From the IMG/VR virus record IMGVR_UViG_3300034062_006701: 64,000 bases of DNA; one strand, 5' to 3'. Both the position numbers and the translations under genes were made by a program. The DNA is from a virus (taxonomy: Duplodnaviria; Caudoviricetes). Under the pieces are notes generated by a model. That model did not search any database. It was not told the DNA's origin and was given only the letters and a program-made list of their open reading frames with translations. Positions 23,055-52,115 of the stretch are shown here, in pieces. The stretch's first letter is position 1. The number at the start of each line of letters is the position of its first letter.

Positions 23055-23735
23055 TTAATAGCTAGCATACTCTTGTAAAAACTTTGATTGGTTTTCAACG
23101 AATGTTTTATCATTAATATCTCTCAACCCAGGTGAATTATGGTACGATAAAATCGGTACAACTCCAATCTTAAGTTTTTTCTTATTAGCGTCTATGCAAC
23201 TCGAGATATCGTAATGGTGAAATGTATAGTTCTCGTTGAACATCCATTTTACTTCTTTAGTTTTGTTGACGTTAACCGACATAAATGCACCATCAATTAT
23301 TGCAACTCTTGCAGGACTTGGTCCGAAATTTGTTATAGATGTTGTTACACCATCTGGTAGGTAATGACCTGCAAAGCCTCTTAAATTATTACCATGAAAG
23401 CCTCCGCACATGATATGCCATAGCGCTGGAGCTTTAATAACGGGGTTTAAACCCCCGGCTAAACCAATGATATCGTATTGCTTGTGACCTTCTTCAAGTT
23501 TTGTGAGAAAGCCTGCATCATCAATCCACATATCATCATGGATAAATAGAATTTGTGAGTAGTTCTTAGTAAGAAATTTATTGTACGCCTCCGATAAGCC
23601 TGTTTTATTTTTTGTAACAAATTGCAGTTTATCTAAGAACATTCCACTATTAGACTTCTCGAGTTTAGCGAGGCTTTTATAAAGAAGGGTTTCCTTATAG
23701 TCAGAGTGTTGTGTGCATGAGACAATAGCTATCAT
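23055..23735 (-). CDS. GT-A (family 2-like) glycosyltransferase domain
   Basis: 'GLSEAYN...ILFIHDD...YDIIGLAG...IDGAFM...FHHYDIS.C' pattern; ATGA overlap with the upstream amidotransferase. Confidence 0.7.
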   Translation of the reverse strand: MIAIVSCTQHSDYKETLLYKSLAKLEKSNSGMFLDKLQFVTKNKTGLSEAYNKFLTKNYSQILFIHDDMWIDDAGFLTKLEEGHKQYDIIGLAGGLNPVIKAPALWHIMCGGFHGNNLRGFAGHYLPDGVTTSITNFGPSPARVAIIDGAFMSVNVNKTKEVKWMFNENYTFHHYDISSCIDANKKKLKIGVVPILSYHNSPGLRDINDKTFVENQSKFLQEYASY

Positions 23736-24418
23736 ATAATAAAAAAGGGTGAATTCTTAATAAAACCGCCAACGGATGTTAATCCTTCCGGAGTTAACAA
23801 ATACAATACACCTTCTTCGAGTGGTTCAAGGTTGTTGTCTGGTAGTGAAGAAAAATCATTCGTAAGGAGGTTAGCATATAATGTACTGCCAGAGCGTGCA
23901 ATATAAATGTTATGTGATGTTTTACTATATATCCAGAGTCCGAATGTACCTTCAAGCTTCGATAGTGCTGTGCATATTACTTCAACTTCATTTCCCGGAC
24001 ACTGTTCTGAATATTTTTCAATTAAAGCAGGTATTACTGATGAGTCCACTTCATTGTATTTTGAAGTATCCTTTATAAGGGCTTTAAGCTTTAAATCATT
24101 AGTCAAAACACCATTATGTGCAACTACCCATTCTCCGCAATAAAATGGATGAGAAGTACTTTCATCAAAGATGCGCTTTGCGCTTGTCGGCGCCTGGGTG
24201 TGTCCGAGATAGAAATAGAAATCTGATGGCTTCATCTGAATATCACTGTTGTTTATAGTCATATTCTTTGACAGCTCGATAGCTCCTTCTTTCTTTATAC
24301 ATGCATCATACGTGTGGCTAAGAAATAAACCGCCGTATGCGAAGGTACCTCGTTCTCTACCCTTTTGATACAGCTTCGAATATACATTAAAATTTGCACT
24401 TCCAAAAATTGAACACAT
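23732..24418 (-). CDS. Class II (Ntn) glutamine amidotransferase, stand-alone
   Basis: N-terminal Met-Cys ('MCSIFG'), 'GHTQAPT', 'HPF', 'AHNGV', 'DS', 'LEGTF'. Confidence 0.9.
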   Translation of the reverse strand: MCSIFGSANFNVYSKLYQKGRERGTFAYGGLFLSHTYDACIKKEGAIELSKNMTINNSDIQMKPSDFYFYLGHTQAPTSAKRIFDESTSHPFYCGEWVVAHNGVLTNDLKLKALIKDTSKYNEVDSSVIPALIEKYSEQCPGNEVEVICTALSKLEGTFGLWIYSKTSHNIYIARSGSTLYANLLTNDFSSLPDNNLEPLEEGVLYLLTPEGLTSVGGFIKNSPFFII

Positions 24419-24427
24419 CTTAATAAT

Positions 24428-24455
24428 ATTATACTGTTAAGAATAAATAATTCAA
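24428..24455. promoter_or_regulatory. Interleaved early (minus) and late (plus) promoters
   Basis: Minus strand TTGAAT-16-TATAAT for gat; plus-strand TAAATA (24444-24449) lies inside its spacer. Confidence 0.7.
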
Positions 24456-24459
24456 GCAT

Positions 24460-25338
24460 ATGAATACAGACGTTAACCTTATTTTTGAAGCTTATAGAAA
24501 TAATATTCTCGGTGAAATGGCCTTACAGGTAAAAGATAAGACAAACGCTGAAAAATCACTTATAGATGCGATTACACACGGCATTGAAACAAGAACCGGT
24601 GATACCTATCTTTTTAAGGGACTACAGGGAGAAGAGTTAAAGCAGAGGGTAGAAGAGTTAGTTGTACCTATCATCAGAGACCTCTTCCAGGATGGCGTGT
24701 ATGCAGGTCGTTCAAGTGGAGATCTTAAAGAGTTAGAATATGATCTTCTCGAGAAGTTAGCGGCTTCAAACCCGAGAGCGAAGTCTCAGTATACAGCGAG
24801 AATTTTAAGAAGCTTTATCGCTAGCGTCGTTGATGAGGTTGAAGGTTCTGTAGAGCAGGGCGAAACAATAGAAAATGCTTCCGATGATATCGCAGACGCT
24901 GTTGTTGACGGGGCAGAGAAGTCAGACGAAATTGCTCAGTCAGAAGCTCCAAGTGATTCAGAACAAGAACCGGTAGCAGCTCCATCAGACCGTATTACAA
25001 CAAGAATTGAAAAACTAATCGCTGATCTCGTTGATGATTCAGGTGTTCTCGAGACAGGTGTCGTTAAGGACGTGGGGCAGCAAATTCTTGATAGCGGTGG
25101 TCTTGGTCTTCAGGAGGGTCAAATTACCGGTAAGGTTAAAGCTATCGTCAATGACCTCGTTAAAAAGCAGGTATTTGAAAGAAAGGGCCAGTATTTAAAG
25201 CTCGGCAGTAATTTTGAAAAATTCGAGCAAGGTGGTAGTGACTCTTCTGTTTTATCCGATGAAGATTTAATAACTACTGTCACTGGCTACGGTCAACGAC
25301 CAACATCAGGTCGCGAGTTCTGGGGTGGACAAGAATAA
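24460..25338 (+). CDS. Acidic hypothetical late protein
   Basis: TAAATA 10 nt upstream; inserted on the opposite strand between gat and queC. Confidence 0.7.
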   Translation: MNTDVNLIFEAYRNNILGEMALQVKDKTNAEKSLIDAITHGIETRTGDTYLFKGLQGEELKQRVEELVVPIIRDLFQDGVYAGRSSGDLKELEYDLLEKLAASNPRAKSQYTARILRSFIASVVDEVEGSVEQGETIENASDDIADAVVDGAEKSDEIAQSEAPSDSEQEPVAAPSDRITTRIEKLIADLVDDSGVLETGVVKDVGQQILDSGGLGLQEGQITGKVKAIVNDLVKKQVFERKGQYLKLGSNFEKFEQGGSDSSVLSDEDLITTVTGYGQRPTSGREFWGGQE

Positions 25339-25344
25339 TTCGAT

Positions 25345-26043
25345 CTAGTCGATTAACTTCTCCCATGGAATACTCTTTGAATAAGAGAGTGGGTCTCTAG
25401 TTCCTGCTTGTATAAACCCTTGAAGGCGTAAAGAGCAAGCCGTGCATTCACCGCACGCTGTGTCAGTACCTTCATAACAAGTCCATGTCTGGTTAAAATC
25501 AACGCCTAATGATATACCCATTTCAATAATTTCCTGCTTTGATTTTGTAATTAACGGTGCCTCTATATTAATTTTATTCATGCGATTTAACTTTATAACA
25601 TCGTTAATTGCATGAATAAATGAATCCGCACCATCCCAAAAACCTGCAACACTATCAGCCTGTGCGGCTCCGTGATAAACAGTACTTGCACCAAAGCTCT
25701 CTGCAAACGAGCATGCAATACTTAACAACATCATGTTTCTAAACGGTACATAATTTACTGTTTGCGCCTCGCCGCATACGTCTCTTGTCTTAGCTACATT
25801 AATACTGTGGTCAGTTAGTGACGATGCACCTATGTCCTTAAAAAATGGTAAGTTAATAATTTGATGCTTGCGGATTTTATCCTTTAAAGCATTTACCTGA
25901 AATTGTGCGCATTCGAGCTCTTTAATATGTCTCTGACCATAATCAAAAGAGATAGCATACACGTCGTCATAATTCGCAGCTGCATGGTGTAGTAACACAG
26001 TACTATCCATACCACCGGAAATTGGCACAACAACGCCGCTCAT
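25345..26043 (-). CDS. queC: 7-cyano-7-deazaguanine synthase
   Basis: 'SGGMDS', 'FDYGQRH', 'YVPFRN', 'TWTCY...CGEC.AC..R'. Confidence 0.95.
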   Translation of the reverse strand: MSGVVVPISGGMDSTVLLHHAAANYDDVYAISFDYGQRHIKELECAQFQVNALKDKIRKHQIINLPFFKDIGASSLTDHSINVAKTRDVCGEAQTVNYVPFRNMMLLSIACSFAESFGASTVYHGAAQADSVAGFWDGADSFIHAINDVIKLNRMNKINIEAPLITKSKQEIIEMGISLGVDFNQTWTCYEGTDTACGECTACSLRLQGFIQAGTRDPLSYSKSIPWEKLID

Positions 26044-27173
26044 TATTCTACTTCTGCCTCAACTGTATCATCCACAATCTCACTATCAGCTTGATGGTAT
26101 CTGTAATCTTCCTTAAGAGCTTTATCGAGCGCAGGTATTATAAATTCTTCATAAAAATTTGCATCTTTAGTAAAGTTTTTGGCATACCCGAGCTTATCAC
26201 CTTTCTTATACTTACCACCATCAACACCAATTGTGTATGTTGCACCGTTTTGTTCTACAATACCACGTGAAGCAGCCATTGCGAGAAGACCGCTATACTT
26301 ATTGAGGCCTGACTTAAATGAGAGATACATTTCAATCTCAAGAAATTGAGGAATAAATCGGTTCTTTGCAGTTAATGCACGGAGAGTTACTCCACTGTAT
26401 TTGTTGGCTTCTGATAGTTTTTCATCTTCAACGTTAGAGAACTCACCTTCACCGGCTTTCTCATTTCTCTTCGCAAGCTGTACTAGGATGCTCGCCATAT
26501 AAACCGGGCCAGATCCGCCAGCCTGTGACTTAATCAACGATGGATACATCGCTGCAGGGTCAGAATATGTATGATTAACAAATAATATTGTTGTTTGCGC
26601 TTTTGCAGCCTTATAGGTTAGTGTTCGAAGCATCGATTTCAATGCTTTAGCGCGCATACCCATATCCACCGCAGACTTGTCCTTCAATGCGTCGTCAAGT
26701 TCCTTTTGTGATGCTAGATTACCCAGACTATCAATGCAGATTATTATCTTACCATGTTGGTTATTCGCTATCACTTTATCTAAAAGTGCTGATACTTGAT
26801 TACGACACTTCTCGATTGTATCGATTGGTACGTATTTCACTCTTTCAGGATCAAGACCTACACCGCGTACAGAGTTTTTATCAACAGCGATCTCAGAGTC
26901 AAAAATAACCGGGATAACACCCTTTTTCTGAGCGTTTGCAAGAATCTTACCTGTAATGAGAGTTTTACCTGTACCGGATTCACCGCTAAAGCCTATAATT
27001 CTACCCTTAGGTACTCCGCCATTTCGAAGATCACCAGTAAGAATAGCATTTAAGGCATAGCACCCTGTATCAAAGCATTCAGTAAAGTTACTAAGAGCGT
27101 TTTCAGAGAGAAAACATGCATCTGAATTATGCTCGTCAATGATTGCTAGAGTCTTGAGTAGGTCTTTATCCAT
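26043..27173 (-). CDS. uvsX: RecA-like recombinase
   Basis: 'GESGTGKT', 'FDSE', 'IDSLGNL', 'NHTY', 'AGGSG', 'KNRF'. Confidence 0.93.
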   Translation of the reverse strand: MDKDLLKTLAIIDEHNSDACFLSENALSNFTECFDTGCYALNAILTGDLRNGGVPKGRIIGFSGESGTGKTLITGKILANAQKKGVIPVIFDSEIAVDKNSVRGVGLDPERVKYVPIDTIEKCRNQVSALLDKVIANNQHGKIIICIDSLGNLASQKELDDALKDKSAVDMGMRAKALKSMLRTLTYKAAKAQTTILFVNHTYSDPAAMYPSLIKSQAGGSGPVYMASILVQLAKRNEKAGEGEFSNVEDEKLSEANKYSGVTLRALTAKNRFIPQFLEIEMYLSFKSGLNKYSGLLAMAASRGIVEQNGATYTIGVDGGKYKKGDKLGYAKNFTKDANFYEEFIIPALDKALKEDYRYHQADSEIVDDTVEAEVE

Positions 27174-27180
27174 ATCACAT

Positions 27181-27208
27181 ATTGTAGTATATCAAATAAT
27201 GTAATCAA
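27181..27208 (-). promoter_or_regulatory. Sigma70-type promoter (uvsX-queC)
   Basis: TTGATT-16-TACAAT, 7 nt upstream of the ATG. Confidence 0.7.
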
Positions 27209-27209
27209 C

Positions 27210-27246
27210 AAAAAAAAAAACACCCGTAGCTATAGCTACGGGTGTT
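27210..27246 (-). terminator. Rho-independent terminator for the pol operon
   Basis: Perfect 28 bp palindrome at 27219-27246 followed on the minus strand by an 11-T run. Confidence 0.9.
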
Positions 27247-27272
27247 AATCTGGTTTCGATTCAGATTACGAA

Positions 27273-27638
27273 TTACTCTTCATCAAAAAGTCGCACTACC
27301 TGTGGCTCATCTGACGTAACGAGCGATGAAGGTGCAGCGAAGAGCTTTGTGTACTGCTCTACAAGACGTGGATCGTTGTCAACGTCTACACCAAGAACGA
27401 CGCTCGAATAATGGTACTTCCATACCGTTCCATTTTCCTTTGACTTCTCACCAACAAATTCACGGAAGTAGAGAGGAATCGTCTGAACGTTAAGCTGTCC
27501 CTGTTGTGTTGGCTGAACGTGAATAATAGCGGGATTCTTTACGGTAAAAGAATGTCCGTTATCAACGTCGCTACCAAACTCACCAATAATGGTGCGGCCA
27601 ATGTGATCGATAAATGTAATAAGATTTGTATTGCTCAT
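27273..27638 (-). CDS. Hypothetical protein (possible Sm-like fold)
   Basis: 'GRTIIGE...VKNPAII.VQ...GQL...P' small beta-barrel pattern; TTGATT/TAATAT promoter upstream. Confidence 0.65.
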   Translation of the reverse strand: MSNTNLITFIDHIGRTIIGEFGSDVDNGHSFTVKNPAIIHVQPTQQGQLNVQTIPLYFREFVGEKSKENGTVWKYHYSSVVLGVDVDNDPRLVEQYTKLFAAPSSLVTSDEPQVVRLFDEE

Positions 27639-27676
27639 ATGTCGTATATATTATATATGCATAATCGAAAAATCAA

Positions 27677-30265
27677 CTACTCCATTCCTAAAAGATCAAA
27701 TAAATCAATCTGTGCATCATTACCAGGTTTTTTAACCGTCCAGTTTACTGATTCATAAAAACGTTCGATTACCGAGTATATAATTTTTTCAAACATTTTT
27801 TCGTAATCAATTTCAAATATAGATTGAAACTCCTTAGGGTAATAATATTTGTAACCGATTGCAGATAAACCAAAGCTGTTCGGTTTTCTTACGTAAAAAT
27901 ACCGTACCTTATCTCCCGATACTATTTTCTCATATTTTCTCTCAATGCCAAGACGATCTATTAGGATGTTATGGTAGTATGCAGCTTTAACATGGCTTGG
28001 CATGCCTTTGACTGTCTCGAATTCATTACTACGGTTTGCATACTTTTCATATCCCTTAACCCCCATAACAAATGCAACATCCTCTATAGGTAATTGTTTA
28101 AATATTTCATATGTCTCGTTAAAGACTTTATTTGTTTGATGATAATCCTTCGTAAGAAGCATGGTTTCAATAATTTTCTTTACATAGGGCTTAATCGGTG
28201 TAGGCATTGTTGTTCGAACAACTTCAACACCGGTGTATTTAAACTTCTTACCAGGTATACCTTCTACATCGAGAGTATGTAAAACGTATCGTTTCTTTTG
28301 AAGAAACAAACCAACATCGGCAATAGCTTCACGCTTAAACACGAGACGACAGTCCTTGGAACCAAGAGCTCTTTTACCCCACAATGTAATTTCTCGGTTG
28401 AGATATTCTTCAATATCTGATACTGCTTTATAGTATTGAGGTGTAATATTACCGGCGTTGTCATGTACAGGTATATTCTGTCTCTCGATTAAGTGCTTGA
28501 TGGAAATATATGAACTGTCTGTGTCATTATATATGATGGGGTTATGTTTTATAAGCTCCTCATCACTAAGACCGGTGTTGGTTTTTATGTACTCGGTAAG
28601 AATACGGTTTGATTCCTTAATAACAGCCTGACCTGTAAGTGTGATTGATTCGGCTAATTCATCGTCACCGAGCGGACTATGCTTGTTCCCGAAGTAACCA
28701 TATACCGTATTGACGAGAATCTTGATTGTGTGCTGATGTATATTGAGCCTATCTATTTCAAGCTGATTATTGGCATATTCCTCTGTACCTTCAGTTAGGG
28801 TAAGTGATTTCTTCTTTGCCTTTGTTAATAATTTTTTAATTTCAACTCGCTTTTGATAATAGTGATCGACTGTATCAGGTATAATGCCTTTTTCTTTTTG
28901 CGTAAATAAGATTTTCGCACGCGATATTGCAATTTCCTCTTGCTGTACGAATTTAGCAAACTTATCATGTGTCAATGTAAACGTTTGTCCATTAACGTGC
29001 TTAATCGTTACATTATCGTTCGTCTTATCGATAATTTTACCTATCTTAGTCTCAGGGGATAGGTTTAAGGTAATCATTGTGTTCGGATATAGACTATTAG
29101 CATCGAATGATACGACATGTTCTTGAAACCCTCTCTGTGGTTCACCTACATATGCACCGGCGTTTAGTTTGTCTTCACGTATATCCTTAATAAAGGTAGG
29201 TATACGCTTGTCTCTAAGACGTGCACGAATTGCGCATAGACCGGTAATAACAGAGAGTGATCCAAGAGCACCTTCAAATGTAGTCAATCCAGCGTATGCG
29301 ATCATACGTAAAAGCTGTATATATTGTAACTTCTGTTCAAGACGAACAAGCAGATTAACGTCTTGAATATTGTAATCGACAAATAGTTCCCAGTTAGTAT
29401 CGGCTAGTTCTGAAAGATTCAGATCACCGTAATCAACCTTGCGTTCACCGAGCTCTACCTCTCCTACCGCATCGAGCTTATACGATTCACGTAGCGTCTG
29501 ACAGAACCGTTTGTATATTTCAAGATAGTCGACAAGTGATACACCTTCTACATGCCATCTTACCTGTTCTTTACCGAATTTACCCATAAACGCTCTTGAG
29601 CGTAGAGAACCAATAGGTGATAACCGTTGAACTGCTTCTTCACCGAGAACCTTTCTAATTCGATTGATAATATAAGGTATATCAAAAAACTCTGAATTCC
29701 ATCCCGACAGAATATCAGGGTAATCTTTTACAAAGAAATCTAAAAACTTCTTTAGGAGATCTTCTTCCGTTTTACATTCAACGTAGATGACATCTGGTGA
29801 TTTAGCTGTATACGGCTTTAGTCCCCATGAATAGAATTTTCTCGTCAAAGAATCATATACTGTTATGATATTAATAACATCACAAGGGTCTTGTGGATTT
29901 GGGAAATCATTAGGTGAGTATGTTTCGATATCAATGTAGTATACTTTGAGTGGTTGTTTTGAAAACTCTGTACCTTCACTCTCTCTCCAATATGCATCAA
30001 TAAGAAACTGCTGGTATATACCTAAATTTTCAAAAACACGCGTTACCTTATTATCTTTAAGATAACGTGAACGTTCATATTGATTTTTAAAACGCTTCTT
30101 CTTTAATTTCGTATTAAATATACTTACGGCATCCGGTGCATTGTTCGTCTCAAGATAAACATACGGCTCGTATGTTGATGGAACGGTAATACGCTTACCG
30201 TTTTCATCCCATGTATAAAGATTTATAGTTTGACTTTGAGGAGAATATGATATGTTCCTATACAC
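27677..30265 (-). CDS. gp43: Family B DNA polymerase
   Basis: Exonuclease 'DIET', 'GWNSEFFDIPY', 'YNIQD'; polymerase 'DANSLYP', 'KILVNTVYG', 'YNDTDS', 'KKRY'. Confidence 0.98.
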   Translation of the reverse strand: MYRNISYSPQSQTINLYTWDENGKRITVPSTYEPYVYLETNNAPDAVSIFNTKLKKKRFKNQYERSRYLKDNKVTRVFENLGIYQQFLIDAYWRESEGTEFSKQPLKVYYIDIETYSPNDFPNPQDPCDVINIITVYDSLTRKFYSWGLKPYTAKSPDVIYVECKTEEDLLKKFLDFFVKDYPDILSGWNSEFFDIPYIINRIRKVLGEEAVQRLSPIGSLRSRAFMGKFGKEQVRWHVEGVSLVDYLEIYKRFCQTLRESYKLDAVGEVELGERKVDYGDLNLSELADTNWELFVDYNIQDVNLLVRLEQKLQYIQLLRMIAYAGLTTFEGALGSLSVITGLCAIRARLRDKRIPTFIKDIREDKLNAGAYVGEPQRGFQEHVVSFDANSLYPNTMITLNLSPETKIGKIIDKTNDNVTIKHVNGQTFTLTHDKFAKFVQQEEIAISRAKILFTQKEKGIIPDTVDHYYQKRVEIKKLLTKAKKKSLTLTEGTEEYANNQLEIDRLNIHQHTIKILVNTVYGYFGNKHSPLGDDELAESITLTGQAVIKESNRILTEYIKTNTGLSDEELIKHNPIIYNDTDSSYISIKHLIERQNIPVHDNAGNITPQYYKAVSDIEEYLNREITLWGKRALGSKDCRLVFKREAIADVGLFLQKKRYVLHTLDVEGIPGKKFKYTGVEVVRTTMPTPIKPYVKKIIETMLLTKDYHQTNKVFNETYEIFKQLPIEDVAFVMGVKGYEKYANRSNEFETVKGMPSHVKAAYYHNILIDRLGIERKYEKIVSGDKVRYFYVRKPNSFGLSAIGYKYYYPKEFQSIFEIDYEKMFEKIIYSVIERFYESVNWTVKKPGNDAQIDLFDLLGME

Positions 30266-30271
30266 ACTAAT

Positions 30272-30300
30272 AGTATATTATACTACATATGCGTGATCAA
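30272..30300 (-). promoter_or_regulatory. Sigma70-type promoter (DNA polymerase)
   Basis: TTGATC-17-TATACT, 6 nt upstream of the GTG. Confidence 0.75.
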
Positions 30301-31514
30301 GCTACAATACCGTTTACGGCGTTGAGCAGTTTCCTGTCACGGTGTCCGAAGGGAAGTGTATGAAGCTCAACATATTTGTTAATATTATCCTCATTCTCGA
30401 GCCAGCGACCATCAGCTAGTTTCCGCATTTTTGATGATATATTCATGTACCGGCCTTTCTTTGAAAGGACATCATCAACGATATCTATCATCTCCTCGCC
30501 AGTATCAAACTTGTACGGAGCATTTTCGTACGTGACAATGTTCTGGCACGCAATAGGAAGACCGTAACTACATGCTTCAACAAACTTAAGATCTGACTTT
30601 GCTTTATTGAACGTATTGTCCTGGAGAGGTGCAACCATCATGTTGACATTTAAGTTCGCAATCTTCTCTGGATACCTGTAGAGTGTCTCCCAGGGGTGAT
30701 ACTCGAATTCTCTACTCTGTATAAGATCTTGCAACGGGAGAGGATATGCACCTAAGAACACCCATTGATACTTGTCTTTTGTTGCACGGATAACACGATT
30801 AACATGAGCGAAGTCATCATTCTGACCTACGCGGTTATCTACATCAAAGTGTGCTCCAGAGCCTGCGTATAGAATGCGTGGTTTTTTCTGATAACGGTCG
30901 TAGTTATCAGAAATCTTCTTTTCATTATAAAAATTACCCATCCAAAACTTTGGCGGGTAATTCGGTATTACAGTGACGTTTTTATTGGACGTCTTGCTCA
31001 TGTAATACTCCTTCATGAAATCACATGTTACTGTAACTTCATCACATAGCTCCATAATTTCCTGTGCTGTTTTTCGTATTTGTGGGTCAGTAAACGCGGG
31101 TTTAAATTTATTGTATTCCGGGATATCCTCACTGAATACAAGATCGTCAATCTCGTAAATAATTCTAAAACCTAGATCTTTACTAAGCTTCTTTAAAAAT
31201 TTAATAAATTCTAATTGATGTACTGTAGCTTGTCTTTGTATGCGAACACATTCAGCACCTCTAAAGTAATTGGGATCAAAACACATCATCGTACTACCGT
31301 GAACGACCATTTTCTGATGTGCATTTAGAATATGCTCAGGCCAGATCATTCGCCAAAAACCACACCCACTATAGTCAGCATAATAATTCATTACACGTTT
31401 AAGTGTTAGTTCTGGTGGTTGTGGTATAATAGGCGCTACAGGCTGTATCGGTTGCAGTCCAAAAGGTGAAACAAACGGCGACGCAAACGGTGATACAAAG
31501 GGACTTGAATTCAT
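30297..31514 (-). CDS. GT-B (family 4-like) glycosyltransferase
   Basis: 'IYEIDD', 'CDEVTVT', 'VIPN', 'APLQDNTFN..KS.LKFVEA...GLPI'. Confidence 0.8.
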   Translation of the reverse strand: MNSSPFVSPFASPFVSPFGLQPIQPVAPIIPQPPELTLKRVMNYYADYSGCGFWRMIWPEHILNAHQKMVVHGSTMMCFDPNYFRGAECVRIQRQATVHQLEFIKFLKKLSKDLGFRIIYEIDDLVFSEDIPEYNKFKPAFTDPQIRKTAQEIMELCDEVTVTCDFMKEYYMSKTSNKNVTVIPNYPPKFWMGNFYNEKKISDNYDRYQKKPRILYAGSGAHFDVDNRVGQNDDFAHVNRVIRATKDKYQWVFLGAYPLPLQDLIQSREFEYHPWETLYRYPEKIANLNVNMMVAPLQDNTFNKAKSDLKFVEACSYGLPIACQNIVTYENAPYKFDTGEEMIDIVDDVLSKKGRYMNISSKMRKLADGRWLENEDNINKYVELHTLPFGHRDRKLLNAVNGIVA

Positions 31515-31524
31515 GTATGTTTAA

Positions 31525-36810: not shown

Positions 36811-36845
36811 TAATCTTAAATATAATATAAGGTACATAAAAATCA

Positions 36846-37130: not shown

Positions 37131-37142
37131 TATATACTACAC

Positions 37143-37568
37143 ATGGATTACGGGCATTGGATTTTAAATGAAGGTGTTATTATCGATAATACAACATTTG
37201 GCTTCATCTACCTAATTGTCAATAACATTACGGGTAAGAAATATATTGGTAAGAAACAATGTACAAGTCGAGTTAAGCGTAAGCCATTAAAAGGTAAAAA
37301 AAAGAGTAGAATAGATCATAAGGAATCTGATTGGAAAACATACACCAGTTCATCCAATGATTTAAACATTGATATTGCAAAGCACGGAAAAGAGAGCTTT
37401 ACATTTAGAATATTGCGTACATGTGATTCAAAGTGGGCTCTAGCATATTATGAAATAAAAGAGCAGTTAGGTGAGGACGTTCTTTTGCGCGAAGACTATT
37501 ATAATGGTATCTGCAACGTTAGGATCGGTAAAGCTCCTAAACAGGAGCTTGCAAAATTTAAATTATAG
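37143..37568 (+). CDS. GIY-YIG nuclease, endonuclease II-like
   Basis: 'GFIYLIVN..TGKKYIGKK...WKTYTSS...F.F.IL...E...YYN'; single short domain. Confidence 0.8.
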   Translation: MDYGHWILNEGVIIDNTTFGFIYLIVNNITGKKYIGKKQCTSRVKRKPLKGKKKSRIDHKESDWKTYTSSSNDLNIDIAKHGKESFTFRILRTCDSKWALAYYEIKEQLGEDVLLREDYYNGICNVRIGKAPKQELAKFKL

Positions 37569-37583
37569 TGTTATAATGTATTA

Positions 37584-38156: not shown

Positions 38157-38172
38157 AAGATAAATACTTCAT

Positions 38173-38622
38173 ATGAAGTTTTTAGATAGAATAAATGCAC
38201 AGATACAACTTCTTGAGGCTGATGTCAATACATCGGGCACTGAAGCGGTGGATGCTGCTGAGCCAGCTACTGATGTAAGTGCTGTTGCTTCAGATGCTGG
38301 TGTTGCACCAGTTGCTCCTGAAGGTTATGTTGATCTTGTTAAATTAATAGCGAAAGCCACAGCTATGAATTTTCCAGCTGGTGCACTTGATGAAATATTT
38401 CGGACTGAAATAACGGCTGAAAACGCATTTCCAATGCAACAAGCTTTAGAAGCAGCTATAAAACAAAACGAAATGTATTCAGATAATCCTGAACGATTAC
38501 AGAATATACATTATAAGCAGTTTACAGATAGTATTAACCCCGGTAATTTTATTCAAAAATATAAAACATTAATATCTACACTAAAGAAACAAGACCCCTA
38601 TATTAAAGATGCTAACATTTAA
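38173..38622 (+). CDS. Hypothetical late protein, putative internal head protein
   Basis: TAAATA 6 nt upstream; MKFLDRINAQIQLLE-AD. Confidence 0.7.
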   Translation: MKFLDRINAQIQLLEADVNTSGTEAVDAAEPATDVSAVASDAGVAPVAPEGYVDLVKLIAKATAMNFPAGALDEIFRTEITAENAFPMQQALEAAIKQNEMYSDNPERLQNIHYKQFTDSINPGNFIQKYKTLISTLKKQDPYIKDANI

Positions 38623-39850: not shown

Positions 39851-40467
39851 TGAAGTACAATGTCCTTATCGAGAAGATACTAACTAGTCTTACACCTTCT
39901 ACAAATAAAGCTATTTTTATTTTCGGTAGGATGAATCCTCCTACCTTAGGACATGAATTATTAATTGCTAAAGCTGTAGAGTTGGGTAGAAAAGAAAACC
40001 GCGATTGTTATGTCTTCCTTACAAAGACACAGGACAGCAAAAAAAATCCTATACACTTTCCTGAAAAGCTAAAAGCAATTAATGCTGCACTACCATCTGT
40101 AAATTTTATTAATTCTGACAATATTAAGACGATTTTTGATGCTGTTGGTTTTTTAATAGATAGTGGCTATAATGATCTTGTTCTCGTCGCAGGTAGTGAC
40201 AGAGCAGGTGAATATGATTCGTTATTTCAAAAATATATTAATAACCCTGATCCAGAAAAGCGATTAAATTTAGTAAGTTTCCGTACTGCAGTAGCAGGTG
40301 AAAATAGAGACCCAGATAGTGATGATGCTTCTGGTGTTAGTGCGACGAAAGCGCGTAATTTAGCAAAGTCAGGTGACTTCACCTCCTTTCGTAAAGTACT
40401 ACCTACGGGTATGCCTGAGTCGGAGGCAAAAGTTCTTTTCGATCAAATCCGTCAAAACTTAAAATAA
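39844..40467 (+). CDS. HIGH-superfamily nucleotidyltransferase (cytidylyltransferase/NMNAT-like)
   Basis: 'FGRMNPPTLGH', 'VAGSDR', 'SATKAR'. Confidence 0.85.
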   Translation: MVMKYNVLIEKILTSLTPSTNKAIFIFGRMNPPTLGHELLIAKAVELGRKENRDCYVFLTKTQDSKKNPIHFPEKLKAINAALPSVNFINSDNIKTIFDAVGFLIDSGYNDLVLVAGSDRAGEYDSLFQKYINNPDPEKRLNLVSFRTAVAGENRDPDSDDASGVSATKARNLAKSGDFTSFRKVLPTGMPESEAKVLFDQIRQNLK

Positions 40468-40468
40468 A

Positions 40469-41086
40469 CTAAGCTTCAAGCATTTTTATCATACTATACA
40501 CAGCACCTTCAACTCGTTCCTTTGGCTGTGTTTGCATGATTTGTTTAATTTTATTAATTAGATCAACACCACCGTTGTCTATACTACTATATAGATCCTG
40601 TTCAGTCTTTTCTTCAATTTCAATGTCGTGGTCTACTCTTTGTTTAAACTCTTCATAATCTTTATAACTAAGAGCACTATTAATACCTTCAACAGCTTTG
40701 GATATTTTATCTGTTATCCATGGCTCAATTTCACTATCACAAGGAATAATATCATACAACATAGCAGACATTTTTGTAATCCTGTAGAGGTTTTGTTTGA
40801 CCATGTTTGATGCCTTTTCTACTGGATGTTCACCTGTCTCATGGTAGTCATCATATTCGGGTTGTGTTTCCTTTCTTGCTAACACAATGTCATCTTCTGA
40901 CGTAATCTTTCTTTTATCAATCATGCAGCCGCATTCTTCAGCGTCTTCACCTTCAACTTTACCACACTTACATGATCTAATAGGAGCTTCGTAATTTTCT
41001 GCTTTTGGTCCTAGACCAACATTTTCTTTTATCAAAATTCTACGAGTATATAGATTATTGAGTTCTTCAAGGTAACTGATTGACAT
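40469..41086 (-). CDS. Hypothetical late protein
   Basis: TAAATA 9 nt upstream; 'M....L..I...S..L...I....E...W...KI..A' helical pattern. Confidence 0.65.
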   Translation of the reverse strand: MSISYLEELNNLYTRRILIKENVGLGPKAENYEAPIRSCKCGKVEGEDAEECGCMIDKRKITSEDDIVLARKETQPEYDDYHETGEHPVEKASNMVKQNLYRITKMSAMLYDIIPCDSEIEPWITDKISKAVEGINSALSYKDYEEFKQRVDHDIEIEEKTEQDLYSSIDNGGVDLINKIKQIMQTQPKERVEGAVYSMIKMLEA

Positions 41087-41095
41087 AGGTAATAT

Positions 41096-41117
41096 TATTT
41101 ATTCTCAACACTAAATA
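41096..41117. promoter_or_regulatory. Back-to-back late promoters
   Basis: TAAATA on the minus strand (41096-41101) and the plus strand (41112-41117); same 10 nt gap as the pair at 15926-15947. Confidence 0.75.
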
Positions 41118-41122
41118 ATATT

Positions 41123-41398
41123 ATGCAATGTTTGTTTGAGCGTTATTTTATTGAAGAGTTAACCCTTGAGAGTGGTAGATGTACAAAAGTAACAAAACAA
41201 ATGGCATCATCTCGTGCAGATAAGAAGTATATGAGGTGTACACGTGTAGATGGTAAGCTTAAGCGTGTACATTATGGTGATCCAAATCTACGCATTAAAA
41301 AGAGTAATCCTAAGAAGAGAAAGTCCTTTAGAGCGCGTCATAAGTGCAGTACCGCAAAGCCCGGTACTGCAAAATATTTTTCTTGTAAAAACTGGTAA
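41123..41398 (+). CDS. Small basic Cys-containing late protein
   Basis: TAAATA 5 nt upstream; 'VHYGDP...RKSFRARHKC...YFSCKNW'. Confidence 0.7.
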   Translation: MQCLFERYFIEELTLESGRCTKVTKQMASSRADKKYMRCTRVDGKLKRVHYGDPNLRIKKSNPKKRKSFRARHKCSTAKPGTAKYFSCKNW

Positions 41399-41400
41399 TA

Positions 41401-41808
41401 ATGAGAACATTTAAGGAATATACAAATAATCGACCTGTGCTAGGTGTAATCGAAACAATCGTTGTTGATGGTGTAGGGGAAGTCTTAGCTAAAATAGACA
41501 GCGGAAACGAAGCTCATAATGTCCTACATGGTGTAGATATACAGTATAACGGGGACAGTATTACCTTTAATACTATTAATAATAAGCAATTAACTCTTCA
41601 GAAGACCGGTGAAATCGATATTAATATCGGTAGCGGTAACATCGAAAAAAGACCGACTGTTAGTCTAAATTTTGAATTAAAAAATCAGCCCTACCGTGAT
41701 ATAACTTTTAGTATCGCAGATAGGGCTGATAATGAACAACAAGTGTTAATAGGTGAGCCATTTATTCGTAAAATAAATGCTCTTATCGATGTAAAGATAG
41801 AGAATTAA
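41401..41808 (+). CDS. Retropepsin-like aspartic protease (RimK-associated type)
   Basis: 'LAKIDSGN', 'RP.V', 'FSIADR', 'VLIG..F'; N-terminus MRTFKEY. Confidence 0.75.
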
Positions 41809-42458
41809 GTCTTTTTAATATCAGCAATAAAGTTGTAAAACTCAGCACGTGTTGCTGGGTCATCAAGGAAATCACCACTAAGTTTACTCGTCTTCATCTC
41901 ACATCCATCGTGCTTTACCCCACGTAGACAGGCACATGTATGTGTAGCACTAATTACCACAGCGACACCCATATTCTTCTCACATACCTCATTAATTGCG
42001 TCATGAATTTGAACTGTTAGACCTTCCTGTATTTGAGGTCTACGGGCATAAAACTCTACAATTCGATTAAGTTTCGAGAGACCGATAACACGACCGTCGC
42101 TTGATGGTATATATGCCACATGCGCACGACCGGTAAATGCGAGGTGATGGTGTGAGCACATCGATTTAACAGGTATACCGCCTTGAAACACCATTCCATC
42201 ATATCCGTTACTCGGGAACGATGTAATCTTTGGTGGTACATCAAAACAACCGGCAGCTAGATCATTTACAAATGCTTTTGCAACGCGCAGTGGCGTATTT
42301 GTACTATTAGGGTCATTACGCCAGTCAAAACCGAGCGCATCCAGATACGCTTCATACGCCTTAGCTGCGTTAGTAATTATAGCTTGCTTCTCTTCAGGAG
42401 AATGTGGGTGGTTACCGTTAGCAAATTTAAGTTTATACTCTTTTGTATATTCAGACAT
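41805..42458 (-). CDS. folE: GTP cyclohydrolase I
   Basis: 'NTPLRVAK', 'SMCSHH', 'GLSKLNRIV...RRPQIQE', 'H.C..LRG'; start moved to MSEY. Confidence 0.96.
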
Positions 42459-42464
42459 AACGTT

Positions 42465-42500
42465 ATTATACATGTACTGCAATCATTTTCAACATAAATA
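42465..42500. promoter_or_regulatory. Early promoter (folE, minus) back-to-back with a late promoter (plus)
   Basis: TTGAAA-16-TATAAT on the minus strand; TAAATA at 42495-42500 on the plus strand. Confidence 0.7.
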
Positions 42501-42506
42501 ATATAG

Positions 42507-42947
42507 ATGATGAAATTTGATCGCTTAATGTTTGAAAGTATACAGAAGACGAATCTGAAAAAGGTTCGTATCAAAGTAGATCCCGCAAACGTCAGTGTAG
42601 CTGAAGATCTTGCGAAATGTAACGGTTATGAGGGATATGTATTAGCGGAAGGGCAGGCAGAAACTAAAATAATGGTTATTGTACCGGATAATATCAGTGA
42701 TATGCCAGTAATAGACGTACCGAATAATTGTATACAACAGCTAATACAGCGACCGGATTCAATGGAACTGGATAAATTCAAACAGTTTTTAATAAATTCT
42801 CTAAATGTTTCTGATGACGATCCACTATTAACTCACATCGTCTCTTGTAATACGATTGACGATATAGAAGTTTTTTTAAAGGATAGTAGCTTTACAGAAG
42901 AGGATATAACGAAACTTTATAAATATTATATAACCTATGGTGAGTGA
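42507..42947 (+). CDS. Hypothetical late protein
   Basis: TAAATA 6 nt upstream; MMKFDRLMFE-S. Confidence 0.7.
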   Translation: MMKFDRLMFESIQKTNLKKVRIKVDPANVSVAEDLAKCNGYEGYVLAEGQAETKIMVIVPDNISDMPVIDVPNNCIQQLIQRPDSMELDKFKQFLINSLNVSDDDPLLTHIVSCNTIDDIEVFLKDSSFTEEDITKLYKYYITYGE

Positions 42948-43743
42948 ATTTGATAATTTAGCAAGAGTTGCTCTAAACGAAGCAAGTCTCGGTGATTATA
43001 TGAAAGCAGTGAAAAGCGCTACAGCAAAAGCCGCTAAAGGTGTTGCGAAGAGTGCAGTTAGAGGTCTTGCTCAATTACCAGGCGCTGCGATTAAGGGAGC
43101 GGGTATGGCATATAGTGCTGTCGGTGGTAAGCAGGGCGGTGCATTAATGCAGAGAGCTGGAAGTGCTTTGCAAAAAGCAGGTCTCACGGCAGTTACAGCA
43201 CCGGTGAAGATGTGGAGGGATTTAAAGACAGCTGCAGAAAGACAAGAATATATTAGACAAAATTTAGAACCTATAAAACTTTTTATTAATAGTAATTTTC
43301 CAACACTTACGACGCGGCAGAGAAGAACTTTAAATCAGGTACAGGATTTTGAACAGCTCGATACGTTTGTTCGAACAAACATTAAGGGTAAGTCACTTGA
43401 TACATTAATAAGTGATTACAACAAGAGAGCAGTAGCACAAGCAAGATTGAAGCAGCAACAATCAACACCATCAACGGTACAACCTGCATCTGTACCCACC
43501 ACAGCACCAGCATCTAAACAATTTAAACCAAAGCTAAAAGCAAATAGATCGATGGTAAAGGATACAAAGAGCGGTATTGTTTATCGGTATCTCGGTCGGG
43601 ATCAAGGTGGCTGGTATATATATGACCCGCTCACTAAAAAGATCGACCCGGCGCCAATTGACTCTAGAGACCAAAAAGCTGTTACTGCTTTATGGCGTAA
43701 AAAGGAAATAGCTAATAAAGCTGCAAAGCAATCGAGCAAATAA
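42937..43743 (+). CDS. Hypothetical Ala/Lys-rich late protein
   Basis: Overlaps the upstream gene; N-terminus '...EFDNLARVALNE-AS'. Confidence 0.65.
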   Translation: MVSEFDNLARVALNEASLGDYMKAVKSATAKAAKGVAKSAVRGLAQLPGAAIKGAGMAYSAVGGKQGGALMQRAGSALQKAGLTAVTAPVKMWRDLKTAAERQEYIRQNLEPIKLFINSNFPTLTTRQRRTLNQVQDFEQLDTFVRTNIKGKSLDTLISDYNKRAVAQARLKQQQSTPSTVQPASVPTTAPASKQFKPKLKANRSMVKDTKSGIVYRYLGRDQGGWYIYDPLTKKIDPAPIDSRDQKAVTALWRKKEIANKAAKQSSK

Positions 43744-43744
43744 T

Positions 43745-43927
43745 ATGCCTTATAATATTAAAAAGCAAGGTAGTGATTTTAAAGTTTGTAAAAAAATTGG
43801 TAATAAAAAATGTTTACCAGGTAAGTCTAAATCTAAAGCAATGGCGCAAAAGAGGATAACGGCTATTCATATGAATGAATCTTTTAATCAACGCGTCGAT
43901 AGTATATTAAAATCTTTAGGTGAGTAG
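43745..43927 (+). CDS. Small basic hypothetical protein
   Basis: 60 aa ORF starting 1 nt after the upstream stop. Confidence 0.55.
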   Translation: MPYNIKKQGSDFKVCKKIGNKKCLPGKSKSKAMAQKRITAIHMNESFNQRVDSILKSLGE

Positions 43928-44056
43928 TTGATTTTTATATTACAGGAATAAGTAAAATAGAAGATTAGAAAGTAAGAGAGAGGGAAGGGACGATAGACAG
44001 ACGTTTTTTTCTGGCATTCCTGTTGATTTCTGCTTTTACTAAGTCATACTATCTTT

Positions 44057-44695
44057 ATGAATTATCAGAGTACTAAACTAATTGAACTTGGATCCTGTGC
44101 ATTTAGACAATTTGGAGCTACCCACAGTCATTGTCATCTCGTTCATGGTTACCAGCTTAAGGCAAAATTCTATTTTGGATGTAGTGAGCTCGATAGTAAT
44201 AACTGGTCAGTTGATTTCGGCGGACTTAAACAACTTAAACAAATCCTCAACGATCAATTCGATCATACACTCTGCATTGCTGAAAATGATCCCTTACTTG
44301 AAGTCTTTCAACACTTACATAATCTAGGCGGGTGCAACTTAAAAATAATGTCTGGTGTAGGTATTGAGAAAACAGCTGAATGGTGCTTCAATGCTGCTTC
44401 ACAATTTCTTAAGAATGTATATGGTGATCGATGCTGGGTAGAGAAAGTTGAAGTATATGAGCATGAAAATAATTCCGCCATCTATTCAAAACCAACTTCA
44501 ATAGTCGCTCCAGAACATGTTCAAGCTATGACAACTCCTGTTTCTCGTGAAGAAAATACACCGGCACCTACAATTCCAGTGGAAACTACTCCAGAACAAC
44601 AAGTAACACCAAACCACCCTGTTAATGTAGGTAACAGTCGTGTAACGTCTGGTTATTCAGGTCTCTTTGATGGTATTAGTTGGGGTAGTAGATGA
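44057..44695 (+). CDS. queD: 6-carboxytetrahydropterin synthase with C-terminal extension
   Basis: 'HCHLVHGY', 'VDFGGLK', 'DH', 'E..AEW', 'VEVYEH..NSA'. Confidence 0.9.
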   Translation: MNYQSTKLIELGSCAFRQFGATHSHCHLVHGYQLKAKFYFGCSELDSNNWSVDFGGLKQLKQILNDQFDHTLCIAENDPLLEVFQHLHNLGGCNLKIMSGVGIEKTAEWCFNAASQFLKNVYGDRCWVEKVEVYEHENNSAIYSKPTSIVAPEHVQAMTTPVSREENTPAPTIPVETTPEQQVTPNHPVNVGNSRVTSGYSGLFDGISWGSR

Positions 44696-45102
44696 ACTTT
44701 GAGCATTTACAACAACTTTATGGCGGGGAAATATCTGATTATGTAAAAATACAAAACAAAACAGCTCCGGAGTATCATAATCAGATAGATAATGGTGATC
44801 AATTATCTAACATATATAACGCACAGGTTAAATCGAAGGGAAGCGTAAATGTAACAAATTCTTTTTTATCTTTTAATCCAAGAAATTTAATAGATCGGCC
44901 TGCAGAAGACCCTATTACCGCTTCTTTAAAGGAAACACTCAACAAGATAGCCGCAGAAATAGGTTTATCAGATGCGGATGGTGTTACATATCACCCTGAT
45001 TACAATCCGATGCTTAAAGACCAAACCAGTAATGATGTACAACAAGCTAACGACGCTGTTCAAAAGGCTTTAGATGAACTTAAAGCTTTGGGCGAGATTT
45101 AG
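44692..45102 (+). CDS. Hypothetical protein
   Basis: ATGA overlap with queD. Confidence 0.6.
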   Translation: MNFEHLQQLYGGEISDYVKIQNKTAPEYHNQIDNGDQLSNIYNAQVKSKGSVNVTNSFLSFNPRNLIDRPAEDPITASLKETLNKIAAEIGLSDADGVTYHPDYNPMLKDQTSNDVQQANDAVQKALDELKALGEI

Positions 45103-45910
45103 ATTCTGACGGACTGTATTCTTTTGTGTTAGTAGCAGGCATTATACCTTTAAACACGTGAGTCACGTATCTGCAGAGTTCAGAGCGTACGATATGATCT
45201 TCTGTTAATTCAACACAGAATACACCGTGCTCCTTAGCATCCTCATTATCAAACGCCTTATAAACTGTGTTAAACCCTGACTTACCATAAGGTAAGTCTG
45301 ATTGATCAGGATCACCACATATTATCATCTTACTAAATTCACCCATACGTGTGAATAGTGTCTGAAGTTCACGTACAGTTAAATTTTGACTCTCGTCGCA
45401 GCAAACAAACTTTACTGCAAAATGTAATCCACGTGCAAAGTTAATAGGGCATATTGTAATTCTGTTATCTTTGTGTAAACGGTGAATTTGAGGTTCGATA
45501 ATGAGCTCAGAGAACTTTTCATTAAACGGAGTCATATATACATTTACCTTTTCATTGATATCACCCGGTAAATATCCAAGCTTTGAATCAGAGCTCTCAA
45601 CAGCAGAGCGAACAAGTACAATATCAGACACCTTCTTCATATTAAGAAGCTGTAACCCGAGATACATTGATAGAATTGTCTTTGATGTACCGGCGGGTCC
45701 TTTGAGTAGCATAAGCTTTGTCTTCTTATCTAGGAATAAATTAATTATTTCCTTCTGCTTATCTGTCCAAGGAAGCTCTCGAACATTTAATGAGAAATCA
45801 ATTTTTTCTCTTTGTGCTACGTAGGGTGAAGTATCTTTTCCTACCTCTTTATCAGTAGGACTAGATGTGACAACAGCTGCGGCTTTCGCCGTGCGTTTTT
45901 GTTTTTTCAT
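45080..45910 (-). CDS. phoH: PhoH-like ATPase
   Basis: 'GPAGTSKT', 'LGYLPGD', 'RG', 'DESQN', 'GD..QSD', 'DHIVRS'. Confidence 0.93.
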   Translation of the reverse strand: MKKQKRTAKAAAVVTSSPTDKEVGKDTSPYVAQREKIDFSLNVRELPWTDKQKEIINLFLDKKTKLMLLKGPAGTSKTILSMYLGLQLLNMKKVSDIVLVRSAVESSDSKLGYLPGDINEKVNVYMTPFNEKFSELIIEPQIHRLHKDNRITICPINFARGLHFAVKFVCCDESQNLTVRELQTLFTRMGEFSKMIICGDPDQSDLPYGKSGFNTVYKAFDNEDAKEHGVFCVELTEDHIVRSELCRYVTHVFKGIMPATNTKEYSPSESKSRPKL

Positions 45911-45917
45911 CTACAAA

Positions 45918-45966
45918 TATTTAATCAAATTGTGATCTTGATTATCTGTATAAAGTATCATATTAT
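45918..45966. promoter_or_regulatory. Late promoter (phoH, minus) and early promoter (queE, plus)
   Basis: TAAATA at 45918-45923 (minus); TTGATT-17-TATTAT at 45938-45966 (plus). Confidence 0.7.
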
Positions 45967-45976
45967 ACATGCATAT

Positions 45977-46735
45977 ATGATTGATATTAATACTGAATCA
46001 CTATTTCTTTCAGACGATAAAGTATTCTATACTATTGAAGGAGAAGGTGAGTATATCGGCGTACCATCGGTTTTTATGCGTATGTCAATGTGTAATTTGA
46101 CGTGCATTGGATTTGCATCTGAAGACTCGCCTAACGGATGTGATTCATTTGTCTCCTGGTCCGTTAAAAACAAAATGACCTTTGAAGAAATCTTCCAATT
46201 AATGGAAGAGAATAACTACATCGATCATCTTAAGCATAATGCTATTCTAAAGCTCACCGGTGGTGAACCACTTATTCAGCAAAAGCAGCTAATTAAATTT
46301 ATTCACGCTTTTAATGAGAGATATAATTTTATTCCACGTATTGATTTTGAAACAAATGCAACGTTAATGCCTGACCCTGAATGGAGAGAGGAATTTAAAG
46401 CTACGTTTACAACTTCTCCAAAGCTCCGTTCAAACGGAGATCCTGAAGATAAGACGTATAAACCTGAGGTTCTTAAGTGGCATGTAAAGCATGGATCTGG
46501 GTTTAAGTTCGTCATTAATGTTGCAGAAGATATTGAAGAGATCTGGGAGAAGTATATTAAAGATAATAACAATATTAATGTACCTCTCAAGCGTGTGTGG
46601 TTTATGCCTTGTTGCGGCTCGAGGCAAGAGCATACTGAGAGATCCGCTGCAGTAGCGGAATATGCTAAAGCGATGCATGTGAATTTTAGCCCGCGATTGC
46701 AATTAGTGATCTGGGACAAAGCGCTACGTGTGTGA
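45977..46735 (+). CDS. queE: 7-carboxy-7-deazaguanine synthase (radical SAM)
   Basis: 'FYTIEGEG..IG.PSVF.R...CNLTC....CD', 'TGGEP', 'ETN', 'SPKL'; start moved to MIDIN. Confidence 0.92.
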   Translation: MIDINTESLFLSDDKVFYTIEGEGEYIGVPSVFMRMSMCNLTCIGFASEDSPNGCDSFVSWSVKNKMTFEEIFQLMEENNYIDHLKHNAILKLTGGEPLIQQKQLIKFIHAFNERYNFIPRIDFETNATLMPDPEWREEFKATFTTSPKLRSNGDPEDKTYKPEVLKWHVKHGSGFKFVINVAEDIEEIWEKYIKDNNNINVPLKRVWFMPCCGSRQEHTERSAAVAEYAKAMHVNFSPRLQLVIWDKALRV

Positions 46736-52114: not shown

Positions 52115-52115
52115 T

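Follow-up and report, generated by a model that had tools for sequence, protein, structure and literature searches.

Phages with 7-deazaguanine in their DNA all encode a DpdA (PMC10516641). HHpred revealed one very divergent subfamily, DpdA3, in Cellulophaga phage phiST (CGPG_00065), in Campylobacter phages and in Flavobacterium phage immuto_2-6A (immuto below), whose DNA holds 345,000 fdPreQ1 per 10^6 nucleotides and no detectable dG, a complete replacement (PMC10516641). The Campylobacter phages CP220 and CPt10 (Eucampyvirinae) combine DpdA3 with QueC*, and the CP220 product according to the literature is dADG (PMC10516641). In a further arrangement, a glutaminase fused to QueC (Gat-QueC) acts together with a DpdA to give dG+, the archaeosine modification, in phage 9g (PMC6884629); Gat-QueC also occurs in relatives of 9g and in Crenarchaeota. 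The DNA analyzed here is a 64,000-nucleotide stretch of a virus of the Caudoviricetes (IMG/VR record IMGVR_UViG_3300034062_006701), called the window below, and its subject is a set of 7-deazaguanine genes. A first-pass annotation, made from the letters of the window, had described a dispersed pathway to preQ0, a separate amidotransferase near queC and no visible DpdA, and had proposed dG+ or a derivative as the product. The phage very probably does modify its DNA with 7-deazaguanine, as that annotation held, and its modification genes are spread over three loci. The reading preferred here, which we consider a good deal more probable than its negation, is a DpdA3-type modification system in three loci with a glutaminase feeding QueC. 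At its core is a DpdA3/DpdN/QueF system known since 2023 (PMC10516641). What is new is a T4-like genome as host, with the genes split among three loci, and, beside QueC, a conserved free-standing glutaminase coupled to a GT-A glycosyltransferase.

The source of the window is an uncultured aquatic myophage, T4-like and with a genome of about 220 kb. Inside the window tRNA-guanine transglycosylase (TGT) and DpdA are absent, tblastn with the DpdA3 of phiST and of five relatives giving a best E of 0.3. Two contigs, found by exact-protein look-up with the last complete genes, continue the right end of the window. ENA contig L092 (221.6 kb) is 100% identical to window positions 52245-64000, and JGI contig L097 matches 2,244 bp of the window and 11,193 bp of L092, both at 100% identity; the sequence read for the source genome comes to about 85 kb of roughly 220 kb. 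On these contigs, about 10 kb past the right end of the window, lies a gene for a DpdA3 of 270 amino acids. The missing DpdA is therefore an effect of the window's edge and not a property of the genome. The first-pass annotation had allowed for an insertion enzyme either outside the window or of a new type, and it is the former that was found.

The 270-amino-acid protein belongs to the DpdA3 subfamily. It is 41-42% identical to the annotated DNA guanine transglycosylase of immuto (E 3e-54) and 44% identical to CP220 gp056. Its AlphaFold model (predicted local distance difference test score, pLDDT, 92; predicted template-modeling score, pTM, 0.89) has eight beta/alpha repeats arranged as a barrel, and its 50 best fold matches in the PDB are without exception tRNA-guanine transglycosylases (E 4e-10; template-modeling score TMq 0.63-0.70). 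A sequence profile of the family finds no match among PDB sequences, and only the fold comparison shows the TGT relationship. Invariant among 26 sequences are D55 (LDNS), D86 (VPD), Q121-G122 (VQG), H188-G191 (HLLG) and D213 (CDTS); the invariant aspartates may correspond to TGT Asp102, Asp156 and Asp280, a tentative assignment made by motif and not by residue-level superposition. The zinc motif CxCxxC...H was not found in the DpdA3 sequence.

The same gene recurs in relatives. A QueC search led to 80 related IMG/VR loci, several on contigs of 119-201 kb, and gene content was compared across five related genomes, of which two have a completeness of 91% or more. The phiST DpdA3 is assigned to phrog_20335 and weakly to phrog_19058; the second family matches one open reading frame (ORF) of 270-282 amino acids per genome in all five (E 1e-45 to 1e-60), the first matches four of the five, and the DpdA3 gene is about 50 kb from queC in these genomes. 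The Pfam models PF01702 (TGT) and PF20314 (DUF6610/DpdA4) match nothing in the five genomes even at E 10, which is a false negative for DpdA3 and not evidence of absence. The DpdA3 gene stands in an operon, given here in coordinates that continue those of the window:

71,757-74,929, minus strand: five-gene operon of DpdA3, DpdN-like formyltransferase, a 115-amino-acid protein, P-loop AAA_28 protein and QueF, read on contig L097

The operon sits 7.8-10.9 kb past the right end of the window, beyond the portal-to-gp23 head genes, and is colinear with the DpdA, DpdN, "thymidylate kinase" and QueF genes of immuto (41% identity for DpdN, 30% for the P-loop protein, 38% for QueF). The DpdN-like protein, which adjoins DpdA3, matches PF00551 and aligns to immuto YP_010114479 with E 2.6e-43; its sequence has YNLHPG and VDEGEI, which would correspond to the Asn, His and Asp of PurN. 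QueF is of the two-domain form (PF14819 QueF_N and, as a faint match, PF14489 QueF). It carries ESKSAKLY, an NADPH motif, and C-R-H-T-K-Q-K-D (C-x2-T-x-Q-x-D, with a catalytic-type Cys), and because of these two motifs it classifies as the reductase type (preQ0 to preQ1) and not as the QueF-L amidinotransferase; the definitions applied are E(S/L)K(S/A)hK(L/Y)(Y/F/W) and the catalytic Cys. Genes for DpdA3, the DpdN-like protein and QueF are found in all five related genomes, and 76 IMG/VR loci have the operon in one variant or another.

Both described DpdA3 systems resemble this one in part. Immuto has the same seven enzyme families and the same operon order of DpdA3, DpdN, P-loop protein and QueF (PMC10516641), but it has a family A polymerase, whereas the window phage is T4-like, with a family B gp43, UvsX/Y and gp41. 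The window phage further differs from immuto in having its genes in three loci, in placing QueC between uvsX and gp41, and in adding a stand-alone glutaminase, to which immuto gives no tblastn match, and a GT-A glycosyltransferase. CP220 and CPt10 are likewise T4-like myophages, and in CP220 a P-loop "thymidylate kinase" likewise adjoins DpdA3; the 10.7 kb around the CP220 DpdA3 give no tblastn match to the QueF or DpdN of the window phage. The CP220 QueC* is 33% identical to the window QueC and keeps FPDCR, and CP220 has no match to the glutaminase. The window itself encodes a DnaB/gp41-like helicase, UvsX, the family B polymerase, gp46/47-like nuclease subunits, a helicase, UvsY and gp32, along with tail sheath, baseplate proteins and a large terminase of T4 type. 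Identity of the polymerase to cyanophage gp43 is no more than about 30%, and blastn of positions 23055-27173 against 50,697 phage records gave no DNA-level match and no cultured close relative.

Taken by homology, FolE, QueD, QueE and QueC, the window genes, would convert GTP to preQ0; QueF would reduce preQ0 to preQ1; DpdA3, as a minimal TGT-fold transglycosylase, would swap guanine in DNA for the deazaguanine; and DpdN would formylate the aminomethyl group to give fdPreQ1. Because a true QueF and a DpdN-like formyltransferase are in the DpdA3 operon, the product is most likely fdPreQ1 (or dPreQ1) and not the dG+ that had been expected from the window. That the pathway instead serves tRNA queuosine, or supplies the host with preQ0 or preQ1 while the DNA stays unmodified, is very improbable: some phages do have preQ0 genes without a known DpdA (PMC6884629), and inside the window no transglycosylase is visible, but the same genome encodes DpdA3 in an operon with QueF and DpdN, the formyltransferase has no role in queuosine synthesis, and a bacterial-type TGT (PF01702) is not found in the five related genomes.

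The genes for preQ0 synthesis are in the window and lie where the first-pass annotation had put them; they are listed with the genes that directly adjoin them:

41805-42482, minus strand: FolE (GTP cyclohydrolase I), PF01227 E 7.3e-48
44057-44695, plus strand: QueD (6-carboxytetrahydropterin synthase), PF01242 (PTPS) E 2.2e-14 over residues 22-144
45899-46735, plus strand: QueE-like radical SAM enzyme (7-carboxy-7-deazaguanine synthase), best NCBIfam matches QueE models
46772-47527, plus strand: P-loop AAA_28 kinase-like protein of 251 amino acids directly after queE, PF13521 E 1.1e-8
25345-26043, minus strand: QueC (7-cyano-7-deazaguanine synthase), PF06508 E 5.9e-63, 212.6 bits
26043-27173, minus strand: UvsX recombinase, upstream gene of the uvsX-queC unit, PF00154 E 2.6e-21

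FolE is 55-56% identical to its counterparts in immuto (56%) and phiST; translation probably begins downstream of the TTG at 42482, and a promoter-like site at 42492-42465 (11 of 12 matches) overlaps the called start. QueD is 37-38% identical to the QueD of the same phages (38% for immuto). Their homologues align to its residues 1-145 only, and the window protein has a Pro/Thr-rich C-terminal extension of about 70 amino acids (residues 145-212) ending GLFDGISWG. QueE is more distant: its five best NCBIfam matches are all QueE models (1e-13 to 2.5e-8), at 34-51 bits and below the cut-offs of 200-300, Pfam detects only Fer4_12, and identity to the annotated QueE of immuto and phiST is 22-25% (E 7e-8 and 2e-7). 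It carries TIEGEGEYIG and a Cys cluster, and orthologues 59-84% identical occur in four of the five related genomes, with a 30% match in the fifth; the probable start is the ATG at 45977. The adjacency of QueD and QueE is retained in the complete genome G003, and that of queE and the AAA_28 gene in all five related genomes. QueC scores 184.5 bits against TIGR00364 and exceeds the curated cut-off of 150.3, and its PP-loop residues S9, G10, G11, D13 and S14 (SGGxDS) are invariant.

The first-pass annotation had placed each of these genes on a sigma70-type transcript and queC on the transcript of uvsX. The general claim was not borne out, promoter-like sites being no commoner than in shuffled sequence (17 against 15.5 +/- 4.5, and 21 against 24.9 +/- 4.5), although a few are well placed, namely the site before FolE and one at 24455-24428 before the glutaminase gene. 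Co-transcription of uvsX and queC is plausible, since base 26043 is common to the uvsX stop and the queC start and uvsX is closely preceded by a strong terminator (27246-27219) followed by a promoter-like site (27208-27181).

The kinase-like genes bear on when the base enters DNA. A P-loop kinase-like gene is at or near DpdA3 in nearly all of the 76 loci, including those that lack QueF and DpdN, and also in immuto and CP220, where CP220 adds an upstream HD-domain/P-loop fusion; a second AAA_28 gene always follows queE, and the window copy (46772-47527) is 25% identical to the "thymidylate kinase" of the immuto DpdA operon. With the complete replacement seen in DpdA3 phages and the ADG nucleoside reported in CP220-infected cells (PMC10516641), these genes would suit a pre-replicative route, in which DpdA3 or a phosphoribosyltransferase acts on free nucleotides, an AAA_28 protein phosphorylates the product and the phage polymerase incorporates it. 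We consider this route improbable. DpdA3 has the fold of base-exchanging enzymes whose substrates are polymers, the published model places insertion after replication (PMC10516641), the kinases could just as well return the released guanine to GTP, and the 85 kb read yielded no dGTP-destroying enzyme. As a separate observation, the end of a gene for a 156-amino-acid phosphoribosyltransferase (PF00156) lies at L097:1-10 (plus strand), about 18.7 kb past the right end of the window; immuto likewise has a phosphoribosyltransferase, adjoining FolE. The L097 protein might salvage guanine released by DpdA3.

Beside queC lie three more genes:

23732-24418, minus strand: free-standing class-II (Ntn) glutamine amidotransferase (GATase), glutaminase domain only, 228 amino acids, PF13522 (E 3.7e-9) and PF13537
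23055-23735, minus strand: GT-A glycosyltransferase, 226 amino acids, PF13712 E 1.9e-9 over full length
24460-25338, plus strand: acidic ORF of 292 amino acids between queC and the glutaminase gene, no family match

The first-pass annotation had correctly seen a free-standing Ntn amidotransferase about 0.9 kb from queC. The two genes are separate, on the same strand and 927 bp apart, with the opposite-strand ORF between them. Both Pfam scores of the glutaminase exceed the cut-offs. Its N-terminus, MCSIFG (in the family MC(S/G/A)IFG), holds the Ntn cysteine, and the catalytic residues R23-G24, H101-N102-G103, V124-D125 and R175/G177/S178 are invariant in 22 relatives. Among the related loci that span queC to gp41, the glutaminase is between the two in 57 of 58, directly after queC in 15 of the loci; 44 of the 57 also have the glycosyltransferase and 13 do not, while one locus has the transferase alone. 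QueC requires ammonia for its amide and nitrile chemistry. For this reason we tentatively propose, as a little short of an even call, that the glutaminase supplies QueC with ammonia from glutamine; it would hydrolyze glutamine and pass the ammonia on, and preQ0 synthesis would become glutamine-dependent. A predicted complex of QueC and the GATase scores 0.47, against 0.00 for the best of three controls, which is weak support: the mark applied is reached by 58 of 80 solved complexes and two of 110 mismatched pairs, and at scores of 0.60 or less by seven of the 80, a range that also holds both mismatches that passed. Contacts are shared between the prediction runs at a rate of 89% or higher, with a partner pLDDT of at least 87.

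Gat-QueC likewise associates a class-II Ntn glutaminase with QueC, but in one polypeptide; the window has two genes, its pair coexists with QueF and DpdN, and its transglycosylase is DpdA3 and not DpdA1. That a split GATase and QueC make the archaeosine base, so that the genome holds dG+ alone or mixed with preQ1 derivatives, follows the precedent of phage 9g, but appears improbable here. In its favor, the tblastn matches of the glutaminase in cultured phages are, besides five unannotated Listeria phage records, the Gat-QueC of Alteromonas phage R7M and of two phages of about 60 kb (of which Klebsiella vB_Kpn2-P2 was checked), with pairwise E of 1.4e-12 and 7.5e-10 to the Gat domains of R7M and Kpn2-P2. 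The Cys-Arg of the PDCR motif is missing both from Gat-QueC and from the QueC of this clade: where CP220 QueC* and immuto QueC have (F/Y)PDCR, Gat-QueC reads YPDNE, the window QueC FWDGA and the clade consensus YWDGS. Against it, the motif of the window QueC does not track the glutaminase, since the relative L077 retains it with no glutaminase nearby. All five related genomes keep a true QueF and the DpdN-like formyltransferase together with the glutaminase, and QueF and DpdN need preQ0/preQ1 and not G+, and the glutaminase has no special kinship to the Gat of Gat-QueC. Its family, searched as the 150 best relatives among 1.8 billion representatives, has 141 representative clusters at E<1e-30, nearly all of them free-standing proteins of 205-240 amino acids; none of the 150 has a length and match layout leaving room for a fused QueC domain, and a search limited to longer proteins, a method weak for this purpose, gave no match. 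The glutaminase and QueC are most likely analogous to Gat-QueC but not derived from it, and the idea of a Gat-QueC split by gene fission is not supported.

The glycosyltransferase suggests another role for the glutaminase. Its start overlaps the glutaminase stop (ATGA). The AlphaFold model (pLDDT 93, pTM 0.90) has a GT-A fold, Majastridin with UDP (2qgi/2nxv, TMq 0.70) heads its PDB fold matches, ahead of other GT-A transferases, and H66-D67-D68 is invariant in 20 relatives. In part of the lineage the transferase is dispensable. Position 23055, from which the first-pass annotation counted its finding, belongs to this gene, which it left unmentioned. The two overlapping genes, with the promoter-like site at 24455-24428 as their own, could be a sugar or amino-sugar module unrelated to QueC, its adjacency to queC being inherited synteny. 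This is unlikely on balance, though it is the alternative to which we give most weight. It agrees with the best solved relatives of the glutaminase, which are GlmS glutaminase domains (E 1.4e-12; NCBIfam GlmS models match too), and with a phage rich in glycosyltransferases (30297-31514 and a glycosyltransferase/methyltransferase cluster at 48.3-58.3 kb). Against such a module, the glutaminase is retained in the 13 loci without the transferase and the reverse is seen once, it directly follows QueC in the 15 loci noted above, the window shows neither a sugar-isomerase (SIS) domain nor any other synthase domain, and the complex prediction lends its weak support to QueC as the partner. Alternatively, the glutaminase and the transferase might both act on the deazaguanine side chain, in the free base or in DNA, to give an undescribed 7-deazaguanine, e.g. 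one bearing an amidino group or a sugar, instead of or beside fdPreQ1; we think this improbable as well. A literature search on split GATases beside QueC in aquatic phages found no description of the glutaminase and GT-A pair.

Several points weigh against a DpdA3-type system with a glutaminase feeding QueC. The product is judged from homologues only about 40% identical, and the FWDGA segment in place of (F/Y)PDCR means that the product of QueC could differ. The complex score counts as a weak pass only. In profile scores the glutaminase is at least as close to GlmS (the glutaminase domain of the E. coli enzyme scores 51 bits) as to the Gat domains of Gat-QueC (45 bits for R7M, 34 for Kpn2-P2), and it is translationally coupled to the glycosyltransferase and not to QueC, so that a sugar-related role fits equally well. 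Synteny kept within one lineage may be inherited and not functional, and the part of the genome read is just the 85 kb stated above. Finally, L077 has no glutaminase in 17 kb. At L077:6638-10721 stand queC, an opposite-strand ORF and then genes for 269, 187 (AAA_28-like) and 314 amino acids, which by size and order could be DpdA3, the P-loop protein and QueF; in the 17-kb stretch none of glutaminase, transferase and formyltransferase was seen, and the arrangement may be a compact one of dPreQ1 type. A QueC beside genes of these sizes without a glutaminase argues that the glutaminase is not essential.

The slot between queC and the glutaminase varies among relatives: it may be empty, or hold the acidic 292-amino-acid ORF, as in the freshwater group, an IMPDH/GMP-reductase-like gene or a GIY-YIG gene. 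The 292-amino-acid ORF has no Pfam, NCBIfam or PHROG match and no phage tblastn match. It is 26-63% identical in relatives whose neighboring genes are 54-93% identical, and an acidic linker separates conserved N-terminal (LIFEAY, YTARI) and C-terminal (GR.VFGGEGG) motifs. It was considered as a hidden DpdA and rejected, being acidic, of low complexity, fast-evolving, without family or phage match, and replaced or absent in relatives; from these features it is probably an inserted cassette and not a pathway enzyme. The IMPDH/GMP-reductase-like gene (318 amino acids, PF00478 E 7.8e-61) occupies the slot in a second group of relatives, as at L035:10662-11618 (plus strand) of the complete genome G003, and is found inside the DpdA3 operon in other sub-lineages (L111-L147; 43-46% identity). 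Its occurrence in either the slot or the operon links the two loci; the window has no copy. In L015 a slot ORF matches GIY-YIG weakly (E 0.007, which falls short of the Pfam cut-off). Elsewhere in the window, at 37143-37568 (plus strand), a SegE-like GIY-YIG homing endonuclease (PF19835, E 2.4e-29) adjoins uvsY.

Other genes were noted in passing. A 405-amino-acid glycosyltransferase (window 30297-31514, minus strand; phrog_7162, E 3.5e-26) lies between the polymerase and the gp46-like gene and is kept at this position in all 12 related loci examined in full. Window 48307-58287 (plus strand) holds about 12 same-strand genes of 210-296 amino acids, among them GT2, an alpha-1,2-mannosyltransferase-like GT15 (E 1.6e-32), a weak GT11-like match, a DXD sugar-binding transferase, an RXYLT1_C-like protein, an FkbM methyltransferase and a class-I methyltransferase; the run looks like a large glycan-building cluster. 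Just after it, at 58318-58905 (plus strand), is a 195-amino-acid protein with a DUF366 (PF04017) match. Past the window, L092:14609-15076 (plus strand) is an ORF with a TnsA-like endonuclease N-domain (PF08722) inserted among the head genes, flanked by a 324-amino-acid ORF, which follows a gp13-like gene, and by the prohead protease.

With its transglycosylase located, the pathway ceases to be an apparent exception and fits the published rule that a DpdA accompanies 7-deazaguanine in phage DNA. Because DpdA3 escapes the Pfam models for TGT and DUF6610, a "no DpdA" call that relies on them is unsafe. If the glutaminase does serve QueC, a glutamine-dependent QueC would be a new nitrogen feed into preQ0 synthesis. 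The DpdA3/DpdN/QueF system belongs to a large uncultured T4-like phage lineage of lakes and seas, and because it is found on 76-80 IMG/VR contigs, fully G-substituted genomes may be common in aquatic viromes, which would affect restriction, sequencing chemistry and nanopore base-calling.

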